DNA from: a virus
Taxonomy: Duplodnaviria; Caudoviricetes
Reading direction: 5' to 3' (one strand)
IMG/VR virus record: IMGVR_UViG_3300044714_000125
Location: 1 to 58,644 of that record
DNA length: 58,644 nt
Shown: positions 2,698-30,663 of the stretch, piece after piece
Layout of the letters: every line of letters begins with the position of its first letter
How positions within the stretch are numbered: position 1 is the stretch's first letter
The notes under the pieces: model-generated
What the model saw: only the letters and a program-made list of their open reading frames with translations
Database searches by the model: none
What the model was told of the DNA's origin: nothing
Program-made: the position numbers and the translations under genes

Positions 2698-3326
2698 CAG
2701 TAAAACCCGCTCAACCCGGTAACGGCTTCGATTGCAATACCCCGCTCACCCCCGCCAGCGCCAAAGTCTTCCGCGACCAGGGAATGGAGTTTGCCATCCG
2801 CTACCTTCCCCGGACGCCGGCGCTGATCCCTGGTTGCCTTACCAAAGCGGAGAGGGATATCATCCTGGCGGCCGGTCTCGCATTGTCGGCCGTCCAGCAC
2901 TGCCCACTCCCTGGTTTTACCCCCTCTGGCGCCCTCGGGCTCGAATACGGCCAATACGCGGGCAAATACGGGGGTGAAATAGAACTCGGCATGTTTATGA
3001 ACATCTGGTTGGATCTCGAAGGGGTGGCCTCCGGGACGCCCGCACAGGACGTTATAGACTACTGTACGCAGTGGTTCGATCAGGTGCAGGCGGCAGACTT
3101 CGTTCCGGGGCTATATGTGGGATACGGGTCCGGCCTGACCCCGAAGCAGATTTATGACCTCCCATTTCAGCATTACTGGAAGGCGTATAACTATGACGAC
3201 GGGGTTCCGGAAAGGGGCTTCCAGCTGATACAGCACCCGGCCAAAGTACTCAGCGGGATCAGTTATGACCCAAATACCTGTGCCGCCGATCTGAAGGGCG
3301 ATATGCCGATTTTCCTTTTTCCATAG
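2694..3326 (+). CDS. putative endolysin, DUF1906 / GH25-like glycoside hydrolase
   Basis: GFDC...FAIRYL...LTKAE...IWLDLEG...PGLYVG motifs typical of Rv2525c/DUF1906-like peptidoglycan hydrolases; last gene of membrane cassette. Confidence 0.8.
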   Translation: MTVKPAQPGNGFDCNTPLTPASAKVFRDQGMEFAIRYLPRTPALIPGCLTKAERDIILAAGLALSAVQHCPLPGFTPSGALGLEYGQYAGKYGGEIELGMFMNIWLDLEGVASGTPAQDVIDYCTQWFDQVQAADFVPGLYVGYGSGLTPKQIYDLPFQHYWKAYNYDDGVPERGFQLIQHPAKVLSGISYDPNTCAADLKGDMPIFLFP

Positions 3327-3358
3327 TCTTCTCATAGCAATTGTCATAGATTTTAAGT

Positions 3359-3391
3359 AAAGGCGGTCCTTTTCCAGGGATTGCCTTTTTT
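3359..3391 (+). terminator. intrinsic terminator after lysis cassette
   Basis: AAGGCGGTCC / GGATTGCCTT stem followed by T run. Confidence 0.7.
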
Positions 3392-3625
3392 GTATAATCC
3401 TTTGAAATTTTGCAAATAATATTTTGTATAAATGCAAAGGATTTTGCAGATATTCATAGTCCTTTCGATGGGACAAGGCGGCACGAAGTTTAAGTACAGC
3501 CGGGCAGGAGGACGAATACGCGAGTTCCCGATAATCCTGCTGTCAGGGCCGCAACAGAACCGCTGCATGGGGTTCATACTCCGTTAACATCCCGAGCGCA
3601 CATATCTACCATCAATGAAAGGAAT

Positions 3626-5550: not shown

Positions 5551-5791
5551 CGGCGAACATAACGCCGTGGAGTGGCCATCCGTTGCGGCTTCCCAAAGTA
5601 CACGGGACGTTAGAAATAATCCGGCTCAAACGGCTTTGAGTGAGTCGGCGTCTATCTGCTCCTGCAAAAATGTAGGAGACGGCGCCCAGGGGCTTAAAGT
5701 TTGAACGAGAGACAACATGCAGGACGTATAAACTCGCAACCTGCCAGATTATTCAAGATACTTTTTTCGGATAAGGAATGGTTATGGACAC

Positions 5792-5817
5792 CCGGCGGTT
5801 TGGCCGCCGGATTTTTT
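5792..5817 (+). terminator. intrinsic terminator
   Basis: CCGGCGG / CCGCCGG stem plus T6. Confidence 0.65.
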
Positions 5818-5831
5818 CAAAAGGTAAAAAA

Positions 5832-6056
5832 ATGTCAATGAAATTTTTCTTTTTGTATAGCCCGAGCGCCGCAACGGCTGAAATTTTAGATTCTCTTGAA
5901 ATGACAAAAGAGGATGCGGTCAGTGCCAATATCCGCTTAAGGGAGCAAGGTAGCGATAACCGGTGGATTGGTGCTGATCTGTGGGATGACGAGGTGGAAT
6001 ATGCTAACGGTCCTGCGGATGAATATTACCATGATGATCCAAGCGATTGTTACTGA
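5832..6056 (+). CDS. hypothetical acidic protein
   Basis: A-rich leader before ATG; track ORF 5778..6056. Confidence 0.6.
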   Translation: MSMKFFFLYSPSAATAEILDSLEMTKEDAVSANIRLREQGSDNRWIGADLWDDEVEYANGPADEYYHDDPSDCY

Positions 6057-12089: not shown

Positions 12090-12161
12090 GGACGAATAGC
12101 TCAGCGGTAGAGCTTCTGGTTGTTAACCAGGCGGTCGCGGGTTCAATCCCCGCTTCGTCCT
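12090..12161 (+). tRNA. tRNA-Asn (GUU)
   Basis: complete cloverleaf: GGACGAA/TTCGTCC, GCTC/GAGC, TCTGG-TTGTTAA-CCAGG, GCGGG-TTCAATC-CCCGC; CCA not encoded. Confidence 0.9.
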
Positions 12162-12326
12162 CACCGGCGATATTGCCGGCAATCTCGATTTGATGAAATG
12201 GGTTTTAATCGGTAACGGTTGGAATCTGGGGATTCAAAAAGGGACGGGTAAGACCAAGGTAAGAGGGTGGGTTATTCTTAATCCGCTTTTTGGTCTGAAC
12301 GTATTAGTAATATTGGATTTCAGTTC

Positions 12327-25664: not shown

Positions 25665-25699
25665 ATTGAAAGTCACAAAAGTTGCCTAAATTCGACACA

Positions 25700-26899
25700 A
25701 TGGTGAAACTATCCTCCATAAAGCCGAACCCCAACAATCCCCGCTTGATCAAAGATGATCGGTTCGTGAAACTGGTAAAATCGATACAGGAGTTTCCTAA
25801 AATGATGGAATTGAGGCCAATGGTCATAGACAAGACCAGGATCATCATCGGAGGAAACATGAGGCTCAAGGCGCTGCGGGAGCTCGGCTATAAGGAAATA
25901 CCGAACGAATGGATCAAAAAGGCCGAAGACCTTACCGAGGAAGAGAGGCGCCGATTCATCATCGCCGATAATGTTTCCTTCGGAGAAAATGACTGGGAGG
26001 CCCTCGGCGCCGATTGGGATATCAAGGAATTGGAAGAGTGGGGGCTCGACATCAACGGGTTCGCCAAGCCCGACGAATCCCTGGAGGAAGATGATTTTGA
26101 GAACAACGAGGAAATTGAGACCGATATCGTGCAGGGGGATTTGTTTGAGATAGGACCGCACCGGTTGCTATGCGGGGATAGTACCCAGATAATAGATATC
26201 GAAAATGTCACATGTGGGCAAATACCAGAGTTAGTATTTGCTGATCCGCCTTACGGTGTGGATATTGTTCAGGGCTCAAGCGTTGGTGGGGGCGGCCCCA
26301 CCAAATTCGGAGGGAAGATTGGGAAAACGGTAAAGAGTACAAAAGGATTTAATCGGGTTATAGGCGATAAAACAACGGATGCGGCGAAAAGATTCTATAA
26401 TGCATGCAAAAAATTAGCTTTCAATAATTTGATTATATGGGGCGGCAATTATTTTACCGACTTTCTTCCGCCTTCAATGTGCTGGATTGTTTGGTACAAA
26501 AAGAATACTGGCAATTTTGCTGACTTCGAAATGGCATGGACCTCTTTCAATCAGGCCGCAAAACTCTATGAATATCTTTGGAATGGTTTAAGCCGCGAAG
26601 GTGAACGTAGGCTGGAGCTAAAACGTCGGGCGCATCCTACGCAGAAAGCCGTCGGGGTTTGCGGGATGATATTCAATGATTTTCAATTTGAGCTATGCTT
26701 CGATGGTTTTGGTGGATCCGGCACTACAATGGTGGCTTGTCATGAAATGAAAAGACGTTGCGCAATGATCGAGATAGACCCTAAATATTGCCAAATCATC
26801 GTCGATCGCATGAGAAACCTCGATCCTTCGATAATTATCAAGAAAAATGGCGTATTTTTAGAAAATGCAGGGAAAAATCCCGATCAAGCAGGTAAATAG
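25700..26899 (+). CDS. ParB-N-terminal domain / DNA N4-N6 methyltransferase fusion
   Basis: IKPNPNNPR...GGNMRL..IADN; HRLLCGDS, DPPYG, HPTQK, DGFGGSGTT. Confidence 0.9.
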   Translation: MVKLSSIKPNPNNPRLIKDDRFVKLVKSIQEFPKMMELRPMVIDKTRIIIGGNMRLKALRELGYKEIPNEWIKKAEDLTEEERRRFIIADNVSFGENDWEALGADWDIKELEEWGLDINGFAKPDESLEEDDFENNEEIETDIVQGDLFEIGPHRLLCGDSTQIIDIENVTCGQIPELVFADPPYGVDIVQGSSVGGGGPTKFGGKIGKTVKSTKGFNRVIGDKTTDAAKRFYNACKKLAFNNLIIWGGNYFTDFLPPSMCWIVWYKKNTGNFADFEMAWTSFNQAAKLYEYLWNGLSREGERRLELKRRAHPTQKAVGVCGMIFNDFQFELCFDGFGGSGTTMVACHEMKRRCAMIEIDPKYCQIIVDRMRNLDPSIIIKKNGVFLENAGKNPDQAGK

Positions 26900-26905
26900 C
26901 AGGTA

Positions 26906-27256
26906 ATGGCTTATAAGAATCCTCCAAAAGAACACCAATTCAAAAAAGGGCAAAGCGGAAACCCCAAGGGCGCAGCCAGGAAACTTCCGGAACTTGATAT
27001 AATCATAGCCGAGGTAATGGGCGAAGAAAAGGAAGGGATAACTGCCGCACAGGCCATCCTTGCTGCAATGCGAGCCAAGGCCGCTAAAGGTGACGTACGG
27101 GCCGCTGAAATGCTCATGGACCGGGCCTATGGTAAGCCCAAGCAGCGAACGGAAGTCACTGGCCTGGATGGAGCCCCCATTCAAACCGACCTGACCATCA
27201 AGCAACACACGGTCGTATTCAAGAAATTTGGCGATGGAGATCATCCAAACGTTTAA
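26906..27256 (+). CDS. terS: terminase small subunit (DUF5681-like)
   Basis: QFKKGQSGNPKG...DRAYGKP..EVTG.DG; directly upstream of TerL. Confidence 0.75.
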   Translation: MAYKNPPKEHQFKKGQSGNPKGAARKLPELDIIIAEVMGEEKEGITAAQAILAAMRAKAAKGDVRAAEMLMDRAYGKPKQRTEVTGLDGAPIQTDLTIKQHTVVFKKFGDGDHPNV

Positions 27257-28547
27257 TGAGGTCTATGAACCGGTTTTCACCTCCAGCGCCAGATATATCG
27301 ATGTATGGGGCGGCCGCGGGCGCGGGGGCTCTCACTTCGGAACTGAGTATTTTCTGCACCTGATCACCAAGCCGGACTATTTCCGCGGTTATTTCATCCG
27401 CCAAGCGTTCAAGGACATCCGGGATTCCCTGTTTCGAGATTTCAAGGATCGGATCATCGATAATCCAACCGTCAGATTGGAGGATTTCCACATCAATGAC
27501 AATGAGATGCGGATTCAATACAAACCCACCGGTAACATCATCAGCAGCAAGGGGGTTAAGGCGGATAATGAACGGACAGCCAAAATGAAGTCCCTGGCCG
27601 GCGCCACGCACGTCCTGATCGAAGAAGCGGATGAGGTTGGCGAAATGGACTTCGATCAGCTGGATTTATCGCTCAGGACCATCAAAAGCAGTCAGATACA
27701 GATCATCCGGATATTCAACCCGCCAGGGAAAACGCACTGGATATGGCGGGATTACGTGCTGACCGACGCGCGCCTGGTTGACGAAAAAGGGCAGATGATA
27801 AAAGGCTATTTCACCGCTCAGCCTAAAAAGGACGCCAACCTGATCAGCATGTTCTCCAATTACCATGATAACCGAATCAACCTGCAGGACTCCACGGTAG
27901 AGAAATTCGAGTCGTTCAAAGCTAAAAAGCCGGAATACTATTATACGATAATTAGAGGCTTAATAAGCGAGGGCATGCGCGGGAGGATATTCTCTGGCTG
28001 GAAATCGATAACCAACCAGGAATTCAACGAGGTTGAAGCACGGAGCATTTTTGGGCAGGACTTCGGGAACCCGTCGCCGGCGGCGTTGGTAGAGGCCAAA
28101 ATGGTGAATAATCGGATCTATGTGCGGGAGCAGAACTACCAGGGCATGACGGAGAAGCAATTGGCGCTGCTTTATTGCCGCCTGGGGCTGACCGAACAGG
28201 TGATCATCGCGGATTCGGCGGAGCCCATGGCCATCCACCACCTTAGGAACGGTTGGCGTTCGAATGAGCTGGCGGAAGGTGAAGCAAAGACTTATCCACA
28301 ATTGTTGAAAGGTTGGGCGATCTACCCGGCATTTAAAGGCCCCGGGTCGATCATCACCGGGATCAAGAAAGTGATGGACTTTGAAGTTTTCGTGACTGAA
28401 GAAAGTTCAAACATCTGGATGGAATTCCGGGAATACAGGTGGGCATTGGATCGCAATAAAAACCCCTTGGACGAACCGGAAGACGCTAATAATCACGCGT
28501 GTGACGCTATACGGATGATCATCGCCGGGAAGGGCCGCTATTACTAA
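27234..28547 (+). CDS. terL: terminase large subunit, PBSX family
   Basis: Walker A GGRGRGGS, Walker B LIEEADE, FNPP, nuclease DFG, ADSAEP, NNHACDAIR. Confidence 0.95.
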   Translation: MEIIQTFNEVYEPVFTSSARYIDVWGGRGRGGSHFGTEYFLHLITKPDYFRGYFIRQAFKDIRDSLFRDFKDRIIDNPTVRLEDFHINDNEMRIQYKPTGNIISSKGVKADNERTAKMKSLAGATHVLIEEADEVGEMDFDQLDLSLRTIKSSQIQIIRIFNPPGKTHWIWRDYVLTDARLVDEKGQMIKGYFTAQPKKDANLISMFSNYHDNRINLQDSTVEKFESFKAKKPEYYYTIIRGLISEGMRGRIFSGWKSITNQEFNEVEARSIFGQDFGNPSPAALVEAKMVNNRIYVREQNYQGMTEKQLALLYCRLGLTEQVIIADSAEPMAIHHLRNGWRSNELAEGEAKTYPQLLKGWAIYPAFKGPGSIITGIKKVMDFEVFVTEESSNIWMEFREYRWALDRNKNPLDEPEDANNHACDAIRMIIAGKGRYY

Positions 28548-28858: not shown

Positions 28859-28923
28859 GGGCCGAAAGTAAATTAAAATGCCAAAAAACACGGGCTTTTG
28901 TCTTTTTTGTCGCATTTACGATT

Positions 28924-28931
28924 TACCTTTA
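28924..28931 (+). promoter_or_regulatory. -7-like promoter box for the coiled-coil gene/ncRNA unit
   Basis: TACCTTTA; divergent TACTTTCG at 28870-28863. Confidence 0.5.
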
Positions 28932-28961
28932 CAACTCACAATTAAAAACTCAAAATTCAAC

Positions 28962-29585
28962 ATGGACAAAATGACCATTCACCGCGCACTCAGCGAGCTA
29001 AAGCTGATTGACGCCAAGATTGAAAAGGCCACGGCCCAGGTAAACCCGTCGGGCATTTATCAAAAAGGACGGCACATCAACGGCTCAATTCCCGAGGAAG
29101 ATTTCAAGACGCTGGCGCAATCCACCTACGATTCCTGTATTGATCTGATGGCCCGCAAAACTGCCATCAAATCGGCGATCGTTCAAAGTAACGGGCGAAC
29201 GACTGTGAAGATCGGCGACAAGGTGATGACCGTCGCGGACGCCATCACAGCCAAGGCCATCATCAAGTTCAAAAAGGCGTTCATCGCCAACCTAACGAAC
29301 CGGCATCGCGCCCAGGTGGCAGCATTGAATACCAACAACTCGGTGGTGATGCAGAACGCCCAAAAGCTACTGGAAGCCGCTATGGGGAAAGACAACACCA
29401 AAGTGACCAAAGAGGACGTCGAGGCCATCCGAAAGCCGTTCATCGACAACAACGAGTTTCATCTGTTCGATCCCCTGAAGATCGAAGACAAGATTAAGGT
29501 CCTGGAAAAAGAGGTCGGCGACTTCGAGGCGGATGTCGATGCAGTCCTTTCCGAATCTAATGCCGTAACATTCATAGAATTCTAA
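28962..29585 (+). CDS. alpha-helical coiled-coil protein (DIP1984/DUF6847-like by recollection)
   Basis: MTIHRALSELKLIDAKI...K.AI..SN..T.V.I....MTVADAI...F...VD..LSESNA.T.I. Confidence 0.85.
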   Translation: MDKMTIHRALSELKLIDAKIEKATAQVNPSGIYQKGRHINGSIPEEDFKTLAQSTYDSCIDLMARKTAIKSAIVQSNGRTTVKIGDKVMTVADAITAKAIIKFKKAFIANLTNRHRAQVAALNTNNSVVMQNAQKLLEAAMGKDNTKVTKEDVEAIRKPFIDNNEFHLFDPLKIEDKIKVLEKEVGDFEADVDAVLSESNAVTFIEF

Positions 29586-29589
29586 ACAA

Positions 29590-29929
29590 TATTGGCCGGT
29601 CATACGAAAACGGTAAATTCTATTCCCGTCGCTCCTTCTGGGTTAACAATGGAGTACCAAATTGCTAATTTTGGACAATCTTTGTATTCTAGGTTCGAAT
29701 CCTGGCGTGTCGATGAAAATCGGCGTGTGGCGGAACGGTAAACGCAAAAGACAAACAAACCCTAAAAGCTTACGGCTCAAAGGTTAAAGGTCAAACCTCA
29801 CCGCTCAAAGTTCTTTCCGATCAAAGATGAAACCTAAAAACGCAAAGCTCTTTCAAACCCTGTATAAATTTTCATGGGGACTAATAGACCACCCCTGCCG
29901 TTTGATCCAGGCTGTATGGCCGGCCAATA
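29590..29929 (+). ncRNA. ~340-nt end-paired structured RNA with permuted tRNA-like domain and 7-nt repeats
   Basis: 16-bp terminal helix 29590-29605/29914-29929; 8-bp helix 29608-29615/29896-29903; T-arm, capped acceptor stem, D-arm; no ORF. Confidence 0.8.
29765..29850 (+). repeat. 7-nt-period array, consensus AAAGNTC
   Basis: AAAGCTT ACGGCTC AAAGGTT AAAGGTC AAACCTC ACCGCTC AAAGTTC [9 nt] AAAGATG AAACCTA AAAACGC AAAGCTC. Confidence 0.8.
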
Positions 29930-29947
29930 CTTTTAAAAGATATCAAC

Positions 29948-30253
29948 ATGAACTGTCTGAATTGTGGAGAACCACTTGAACAAACCCCTGGAAAGAAGGA
30001 GAAGCAGTTCTGCAATGTCTCCTGCCGGTCGAGCTTCCACCAAAAGAAAAAGCGGGCTGAAGCGAAGACCGCCCCCTTCCAGGAACGCGTAGTCGAGCAG
30101 AAGAAGACCGATCCGGTCACCCTGCCGCCGTCGCCTCGGCAACTAATCAGACGCGAGCCTCCGCCGGTAATGCCGGCCGGGTTGACTCCTTTGCAGCAGC
30201 AGGCCTGGAAGGCGAAACAGCGGAAAAAGTTACAGGAAAATCGACTCAAATGA
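29948..30253 (+). CDS. Zn-finger hypothetical protein
   Basis: CLNCG...FCNVSCR. Confidence 0.7.
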   Translation: MNCLNCGEPLEQTPGKKEKQFCNVSCRSSFHQKKKRAEAKTAPFQERVVEQKKTDPVTLPPSPRQLIRREPPPVMPAGLTPLQQQAWKAKQRKKLQENRLK

Positions 30254-30663
30254 TAAAGGCAAGCGAATTGAGGATCGGCAACAAGATCAACGCCATTTCA
30301 TCGTTAGAGGGGGCCCCTGTTGGCATTATCGAGGTGATGGAAATATACCGCAATGGCGTTGATTCTACAAAGTACATGGAATATGCTCCGGATTATCCGT
30401 TTGGATACCCCTGCTATCCTTTTGAAGGGTTGGAGGGCATTCCCCTGACGCCGGAGATTCTCGAAAAGTGCGGGTTTGTATTCAATCACTATTGGCAAAG
30501 CAAGATGGTGGACCTTAGTCAGGACAAAGACGGATTTTTTCTTTGCGCCGAAGACCCTCATGAAGGAGATATCTATAGACTCAGCAAAGGATTCCATTTC
30601 TTCCACCAGCTGCAGAACCTTTTCTTCGCGCTGACCGGTGAGGAGCTAATTGTAAAGCTATGA
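30250..30663 (+). CDS. Bacteroidota-phage hypothetical family protein
   Basis: ELRIGN...IPLTPEILEKCGF...HQLQNLFFALTGEEL; paralog at 37131..37580. Confidence 0.8.
   Translation: MIKASELRIGNKINAISSLEGAPVGIIEVMEIYRNGVDSTKYMEYAPDYPFGYPCYPFEGLEGIPLTPEILEKCGFVFNHYWQSKMVDLSQDKDGFFLCAEDPHEGDIYRLSKGFHFFHQLQNLFFALTGEELIVKL

Follow-up and report, generated by a model that had tools for sequence, protein, structure and literature searches.

The described RNAs closest to the element treated here are the YrlA RNAs, which are Y RNAs mimicking transfer RNA (tRNA), and the b7a-tRNA (band 7-associated tRNA), tRNA mimics that are thought to serve as RNA cofactors of RNA repair and decay and whose partners and roles are poorly known. 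YrlA tRNA mimics were reported in phages in 2014, where they lie beside Ro60 genes, and for M. smegmatis YrlA the same report describes a 7-bp acceptor stem, cleavage by RNase P in vitro and an in vivo form that is cut and CCA-tailed (PMC4201824). The b7a-tRNA was predicted by Burroughs and Aravind (2016); a later source, from which its gene setting is taken here, describes it as not validated experimentally (10.1101/312249). An original prediction made from the letters alone had proposed a circularly permuted tRNA-like domain in the IMG/VR record IMGVR_UViG_3300044714_000125, a soil phage of 97% completeness, the entire 58,644 bp of which were analysed and are referred to as the window. The element lies in a 362-nt gap between two plus-strand open reading frames (ORFs; 28878-29585 and 29948-30253). 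It probably represents a domain, within a phage RNA of about 300 nt, that mimics tRNA in the manner of YrlA and b7a-tRNA and cannot be charged; the genes of the usual partners are missing. The case adds, first, a phage copy that comes without a partner protein gene, pointing to host proteins as partners, second, hints from the RNA libraries of four studies to a discrete RNA occurring in several soils, and, third, a set of 83 distinct, strongly covarying elements with Band-7-linked bacterial and unlinked phage copies and two permutation variants. The family provides a concrete model to add to Rfam and a tractable RNA.

A family of tRNA-like domains with a capped acceptor stem

The domain at 29679-29751 (plus strand) keeps exact tRNA spacing, as would result from opening a tRNA chain within its anticodon loop and joining the two ends of the acceptor. 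Its parts are given below; where no other basis is named, they are read from the sequence.

29679-29683, + strand: equivalent of the anticodon-stem 3' strand, TCTTT (tRNA positions 39-43); five of five pairs with 29747-29751 at exact tRNA spacing
29684-29688, + strand: 5-nt variable loop GTATT (G44 to T48)
29689-29705, + strand: T arm CTAGG-TTCGAAT-CCTGG with the canonical loop TTCGAAT
29706-29727, + strand: acceptor-stem equivalent of 9 bp with a GAAA loop at 29715-29718, directly abutting the T stem and U8
29728-29729, + strand: U8-G9 (TG)
29730-29745, + strand: Leu/Ser-type D arm with a 3-bp stem and a loop bearing A14, A15, G18-G19 and A21
29746, + strand: A26
29747-29751, + strand: equivalent of the anticodon-stem 5' strand, AAAGA (tRNA positions 27-31), pairing with TCTTT at 29679-29683

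All conserved elbow nucleotides are present (U8, A14, A15, G18-G19, A21, A26, T48, T54-T55-C56 and A58), as are G3.U70 and A73. Since three of the nine pairs in the capped hairpin are G.U, only the plus-strand RNA can form this fold. Every stretch named in the original prediction was found in its place, and TCTTT and AAAGA, proposed there as an anticodon-stem equivalent, pair completely at the exact spacing.

At curated thresholds, ARAGORN and Rfam make a sole call in the whole window, a tRNA-Asn at 12090-12162, and neither the window element nor 20 related loci match any Rfam family at threshold. The pattern leading from the T loop to the D arm has a single match in the window, and not one of 100 shuffles contains it. 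Re-permutation of the sequence, the check named with the original prediction, resulted in ARAGORN calling a tRNA in 10 of 10 constructs versus 0 of 1 in native order. Moreover, a covariance model built exclusively from 13 bacterial elements has its only window match at 29679-29751, at 66.1 bits and an E value of about 1e-19, a score to be read as partly circular, the 13 elements having been collected with a pattern derived from the window. The next match in the window reaches 7.4 bits, and the real tRNA-Asn is not matched.

A close relative, L001 (an IMG/VR contig with the same sequence as L013, L033 and L081), shows 93% identity to the window across the gap. The two sequences agree fully in the T arm, the D arm and both strands of the anticodon stem, whereas the capped hairpin of L001 differs in sequence, still with six of the seven anchored positions paired. 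Further members were recruited with a degenerate pattern modelled on the T loop and D arm of the window itself, yielding 19 viral, 29 genome and 81 metagenome loci and, with the window, 131 matches corresponding to 106 distinct sequences. Tandem tRNAs have been flagged as false positives of such patterns (Chen et al., 2014, PMC4201824). Sorting with ARAGORN, including 250 nt of flank, left 83 of the 106 with neither side in a called tRNA and identified 18 tandem tRNAs, serving as control, and 5 mixed cases. In all 83 members the T stem has five of five pairs, with many pair types, and the anchored acceptor stem is paired at seven of seven positions in 57, at six in 10, at five in 13, at four in 2 and at three in a single member. 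Seven of seven anchored pairs are seen in 0.2% of shuffles and in none of the 18 tandem tRNAs. Each position of the 73 distinct hairpins shows at least four standard pair types. The capping loops are short, 4 nt being the commonest length, and thus offer little space for an encoded CCA.

Applied to 85 sources, the bacterial covariance model gave 136 matches. In their alignment, 96.5% of the cells are paired compared to 65.7% in shuffles, and changes on both sides occur at 15 of 15 pairs. The corresponding covariation score of 0.724 versus 0.172 was reached by none of 500 shuffles, and slid partners only gave values between 0.05 and 0.15. The D stem is paired to 99.5% in alignment A4. Outside the helices, 75 of 81 members carry T at position 48 and 66 carry A at position 26.

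These counts also bear on the proposal that the element has no function and is left over from decayed tandem tRNA genes or from a tRNA fragment of the attP type. True tandem tRNAs do give the same pattern (18 of the 106 distinct sequences), yet not one of them shows the complete anchored pairing. Likewise at odds with a remnant, the hairpin of L001 has been replaced in a compensatory manner, the core is invariant in RNA contigs (see below) while the flanks vary, and in the window no tyrosine integrase gene and no other tRNA half nearby was found. This explanation is close to refuted.

Common to all members is the elbow plus the closed helix of acceptor and T stem. Two kinds of permutation occur, one opening the tRNA order in the anticodon loop and the other in the variable region. 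In 30 of the 83 members, many of them from phages, the D arm is succeeded by a normal anticodon arm (5-bp stem, 7-nt loop), and the loops differ among them. In these, the chain is predicted to enter and leave at the variable region, often via a long outer stem, which covaries between L003 and L009. Closure of the anticodon-stem equivalent by the flanking strands, with at least four of five pairs, is found in 24 of 81 members (mainly Myxococcota) against 38 of 404 shifted controls.

The 30 anticodon arms are in line with a second explanation, in which the transcript would give rise to a tRNA-like molecule made of two pieces and possibly chargeable. Cleavage by RNase P before 29721, trimming of the 3' side to the discriminator A29713 and CCA addition would leave two pieces joined through the acceptor stem and through tertiary contacts, comparable to two-piece transfer-messenger RNA (tmRNA) and to what is reported for M. 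smegmatis YrlA. The latter sets a precedent with its RNase P cut and CCA tail (PMC4201824). In addition, 50 of the 73 distinct hairpins have T-stem-anchored helices of 7 or 8 bp, ARAGORN accepts the re-permuted form, and the window has G3.U70 together with A73. However, the best folds of the window and L001 are without an anticodon loop, anticodon-like loops vary in the family, and G3.U70 is absent from L001 and present in just 10 of the 73 hairpins. Furthermore, RNA contigs of X10, X19 and X6 cross the capping loop unbroken and show no untemplated CCA, albeit contigs are poor evidence on this point. Overall, a two-piece molecule appears unlikely, but it is the main competing explanation, sustained by the marked preference for stems of 7-8 bp.

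Gene neighbourhoods of bacterial and phage members

In Chitinophagaceae and Kofleriaceae loci, Pfam assigns a Band-7/SPFH domain to the gene directly downstream of the element. For counting, a profile from four such proteins was used, requiring a position within 700 nt downstream on the same strand. By this measure, Band-7 genes follow 15 of 24 judgeable genome loci, 17 of 33 metagenome loci and 0 of 10 viral loci (32 of 57 for bacterial and metagenome loci combined). The bacterial relatives lie 40-460 nt upstream of these genes on the same strand. At a Longitalea locus, the order is element, Band-7, DinB_2 and RtcB, the single case with RtcB. A position beside Band-7/SPFH, frequently together with RtcB, is also what characterises the b7a-tRNA. 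TROVE/Ro60 (PF05731) was found neither in five bacterial genomes carrying relatives nor in five further phages whose complete records contain the element; RtcB is likewise absent from these phages, one of which encodes Band-7 at a different genomic site.

In large phages, elements are located within tRNA arrays, at times as chained units, whereas the window element is solitary. The array setting would suit a decoy function, by which the RNA would attract host anti-phage nucleases or defence proteins reading tRNA shape and so shield real tRNAs. Phage tRNAs can counter tRNA-cutting defences, which is the basis of this idea, and a tRNA mimic lacking an anticodon loop in a phage without partner genes would be compatible with it. 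Nevertheless, no defence or counter-defence gene is linked to the element, the neighbouring window proteins are uninformative, and the bacterial relatives are tied to Band-7 and RtcB, not to nucleases. We consider a decoy unlikely.

The Band-7-linked RNAs are not uniform. Those of Chitinophagaceae (L034, L038, L047, L062 and L113) have two tandem permuted tRNA-like modules within the element and about 100 nt upstream, the first with an ordinary GCTC...GAGC D arm and closed like the window element. At L026, a metagenome-assembled genome (MAG) of Gammaproteobacteria, the RNA linked to Band-7 has the form of an ordinary, open tRNA-like gene. It lies at 272-355 of the extracted segment and is called as an 84-nt tRNA-Ile(TAT) whose variable arm is long; the Band-7 gene follows 332 nt downstream. 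Hence, with the capped forms elsewhere, both open and capped forms accompany Band-7.

A putative discrete phage RNA in soil metatranscriptomes

At least part of a 1001-nt stretch was present in 24 sequencing runs, 17 of which are RNA libraries, each with about 7-10% of the sampled words. Contig evidence is from four RNA runs belonging to four studies; small word shares in 6 DNA and 13 other RNA runs were not counted. The contigs comprise one of 286 nt (29605-29895), one of 291 nt (29606-29900), two of 110 and 113 nt (29605-29717) plus one of 207 nt (29688-29896), and a pair covering 29737-29878 and 29849-29927. In all four studies the flanking ORFs are uncovered, though stretches without RNA coverage prove nothing alone. 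The breaks at 29717 and 29688 sit 30 nt from the last variant and are thus read as assembly breaks and not as RNA ends. Starts at 29605/29606 recur in three studies, ends fall at 29895-29900, and both termini can pair, which fits a discrete RNA. As a weak hint, this suggests a discrete phage RNA of about 300 nt in several soils, with the following features around the tRNA-like domain:

29605-29903, + strand: non-coding RNA, approximate extent from contigs of RNA libraries; the ends are approximate, the contigs being assembled
29608-29615, + strand: predicted 5' strand of the terminal stem, pairing with 29896-29903
29631-29655, + strand: hairpin 1, variable stem and conserved loop CTGGGTTAA, from window versus L001
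29657-29674, + strand: hairpin 2, CCAAA/TTTGG, from the window sequence and L001; the 'anticodon arm' of the original prediction
29752-29875, + strand: A-rich 3' region with four CAAAG repeats, from RNA-contig coverage
29876-29895, + strand: 3' hairpin GGGG...CCCC; three RNA contigs end at 29895-29900
29896-29903, + strand: 3' strand of the terminal stem, pairing with 29608-29615
29588-29599 (left) and 29920-29931 (right), no strand assigned: 12-nt inverted repeat bracketing the RNA gene, 11 of 12 positions complementary

The terminal stem of eight pairs was predicted by RNAalifold from just two sequences, window and L001, and a C>U change in the latter preserves its pair as U.G. In hairpin 1, one pair changes on both sides between the two sequences, from C-G to A-U, and another is altered on one side. 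The similarity between window and L001 stops about 10 nt past the right arm of the inverted repeat and the downstream gene differs, placing the RNA gene at a mosaic junction.

Hairpin 2 had been taken for a canonical Ser(GCU) anticodon arm. Its stem exists and is retained in L001 with a shifted register. Instead of the canonical 7 nt, however, the window has an 8-nt loop containing GCT; in L001 and the RNA contigs, a 7-nt loop carries GTT. Consequently, a Ser(GCU) identity is not conserved. The class II permuted tRNA-Ser proposed as an alternative fold finds no support in natural variants of the RNA contigs either, since changes at 29685 and a deletion at 29675 strike the variable-arm stem it postulates. 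In energy, the favoured and the class II fold are close (-23.5 versus -24.9 kcal/mol), which leaves room for the alternative variable-arm fold. After the D arm, an anticodon arm pairs at only two of five positions in the window, and L001 likewise has no such arm. Taken together with the 8-nt loop upstream and the change from GCT to GTT, a conserved canonical anticodon arm fixing an identity was not found for the window.

No differences from the window are listed for the RNA contigs between 29688 and 29758, as opposed to 3-8% in the flanks. Within the variable loop, 29685-29687 are altered with 29684 and 29688 unchanged, a pattern that would fit a loop whose ends form tertiary pairs. No joined ends were reported and no untemplated CCA was seen in the RNA contigs, which are poor at showing rare or processed forms.

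The transcript evidence also bears on the idea that the element is a processing or stabilising signal of a long transcript, recruiting RNase P or blocking exonucleases and so punctuating the mRNA between gene blocks. Genes of the same strand lie on both sides, the only signals around the element are one promoter-like and one terminator-like site, both weak, and the position of the bacterial relatives upstream of Band-7 is leader-like. On the other hand, the RNA contigs of the four studies cover the 300-nt region and not the flanking ORFs, the RNA has been retained in L001 although the downstream gene differs, and a simple punctuation site needs no closed acceptor stem. Such a role is very improbable.

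In the A-rich 3' region, the four CAAAG copies at 29775-29848 are GCTCAAAGG, GCTCAAAGT, ATCAAAGAT and CGCAAAGCT, with possible CTTTG/CTTTC partners at 29680, 29813 and 29850. Natural variants of this region are mostly transitions, and no helix was confirmed among them; helices placed by RNAalifold in the 3' half received no support from the variants and were dropped. Small ORFs of the region were also rejected. The ATG at 29827 of a 50-codon ORF is lost (29829 G>T) in contigs of all four RNA runs, and the variants show additional indels of 1-2 nt.

Comparison with YrlA, b7a-tRNA and other permuted RNAs

With YrlA the window element shares the order of parts, i.e., anticodon-stem strand, variable loop, T arm, closed acceptor hairpin, two nucleotides, D arm and anticodon-stem strand. 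Shared as well are the missing CCA end, the pairable termini of the whole RNA and the known occurrence in phages. In Rfam's relaxed mode, YrlA is the top match in 29400-30000, across the full model, at 14.9 bits and an E value of 4.1; none of the 20 related loci scanned has a YrlA match at gathering score. In contrast to YrlA, the window RNA reaches about 300 nt, including additional hairpins and an extended A-rich 3' portion, and a Ro60/TROVE gene is absent not only from the window phage but also from the five other phages and five bacterial genomes mentioned above. With the Band-7-linked bacterial relatives, i.e., the b7a side, the element has in common the Leu-type D arm, the G...T variable loop and the capped stem, in line with its partly circular score on the model from 13 bacterial elements; it differs in that the window phage has neither a Band-7 nor an RtcB gene. 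As the YrlA score is below threshold and the Ro60 neighbour, the Ro60 motif and the b7a gene neighbourhood are absent, the element is filed as a variant outside both groups proper.

Structure, family and covariation favour a non-chargeable elbow mimic of circularly permuted layout, which the original prediction had offered as one of its two options. T arm and D arm would form an elbow like the upper part of a tRNA, an acceptor-like helix of 7-9 bp would stack on the T arm, and the chain would enter and exit via the 5-bp anticodon-stem equivalent. With this helix sealed by a loop, there is no 3' CCA end to charge, and we infer that the RNA is not charged. The tRNA-shaped surface would instead dock host proteins recognising tRNA shape, presumably of repair and decay pathways; by analogy with YrlA and b7a-tRNA, candidates are components of RNA-repair or turnover machinery such as RtcB plus Band-7 or Ro60 plus PNPase. 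The remainder of the RNA may carry another function or partner, and the phage would provide the RNA alone and depend on host proteins.

Several observations weigh against this assignment. The window phage encodes no TROVE/Ro60 (PF05731), Band-7 (PF01145) or RtcB (PF01139), which makes any partner a guess, and the 14.9 bits on the YrlA model (RF02553) fall short of its gathering score of 69. The 5' strand lacks the motif bound by Ro60, GNCGAAN0-1G (Chen et al., 2014, PMC4201824), and has just CGAA at 29605-29608, preceded by TA and followed by AAC. The preference for stems of 7-8 bp could mean action of RNase P or a CCA-adding enzyme. Minimum-free-energy folding against shuffles gave no signal (z of -0.41 and +0.39). 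Such thermodynamic tests often miss tRNA-like folds. The alignment behind the pair counts was fitted to the model, and the recruiting pattern is window-derived, making membership partly circular. Moreover, the RNA contigs show neither strand nor exact ends nor level, and carry-over of DNA is possible. Finally, the L001 contig is part of a Chitinophagaceae MAG, a mere binning hint to the host.

This MAG carries RtcB but lacks Band-7, and the initial 4,000 bases of the RtcB-bearing contig, spanning the RtcB gene and its entire 1.8 kb upstream region, contain no T-loop motif. Terminase similarity allowed no host assignment.

Two bolder extensions appear speculative and rather unlikely. Permuted tRNA-like genes with a capped acceptor might represent a large unrecognised class of phage RNAs, often residing in tRNA arrays with intact anticodon arms; alternatively, they might plug into the Band-7/RtcB repair of the host, with the phage steering tRNA repair by RNA alone.

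Circularly permuted tRNA genes exist in red and green algae and in Thermofilum, where the tRNAs mature via a splicing-endonuclease motif and a circular intermediate, a route not known from bacteria. As in such genes, the 3' half precedes the 5' half in the window, and ARAGORN recognises a tRNA once the usual order is restored. Differing from them, the capping loop in the window has 4 nt and the favoured fold is without an anticodon loop. Two-piece tmRNA is similar in that a permuted tRNA-like domain is followed by an unstructured A-rich stretch and in its presence in RNA libraries. As a candidate, tmRNA was rejected: ARAGORN finds none, Rfam fragments reach just 5-6 bits, a 2-nt indel at 29759 among the variants (L001 and RNA contigs) breaks any tag frame, G3.U70 is not conserved and the D arm is complete.

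The view that such an element was not known from phages proved too strong in light of the YrlA mimics reported in 2014 (PMC4201824). An earlier description of phage elements of this kind lacking Ro60 was not found in the literature searched, a body that excludes the supplements of Chen et al. (2014) and Burroughs and Aravind (2016). Searches for further close relatives gave little. A blastn search of the RNA against 50,697 phage records returned merely two 41-nt matches, both in Campylobacter phages, and BLAST in 401 genomes of the class of G008 one partial match of 40 nt. A 24-mer from the 3' region recovered L001 only, a first pattern scan with fixed gap 0 loci, and scans with flanking proteins one locus for the 235-aa upstream ORF and 0 loci for the 137-aa ORF at 30250-30663.

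Elsewhere in the window, a 405-aa ORF at 25682-26899 (plus strand) combines a ParB-like nuclease N-terminus with a DNA methyltransferase and lies just upstream of the large terminase (27228-28547).

The phage arrays contain further tRNA-like genes. ARAGORN calls tRNA-Asn(GTT) genes of 82-86 nt on the minus strand in L004 (6126-6208), L006 (174-255), L012 (10463-10548), L017 (512-596) and L020 (5280-5365), all with a long variable arm and the Leu/Ser-type D arm of the element; class II architecture with an Asn anticodon is unusual in bacteria, and the products may be b7a-type tRNA-like RNAs with no part in decoding. In a 179-kb phage (L003, about 5715-6002, minus strand), permuted units are chained, with T arm, capped hairpin, D arm, anticodon arm and an insert of about 80 nt repeated in this order; the Rfam tRNA model spans 153 nt over one unit, and YrlA scores 26.7 bits on the adjacent one. 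A 283-kb phage (L005) has a GOLLD RNA at 2958-3395 (minus strand, 194.9 bits) a few kb from a capped element and tRNA genes. Rfam tRNA matches of 100-115 nt in L003 (9135-9244 and 10048-10162) and L005 (7508-7607) suggest tRNA genes with insertions of 30-40 nt.

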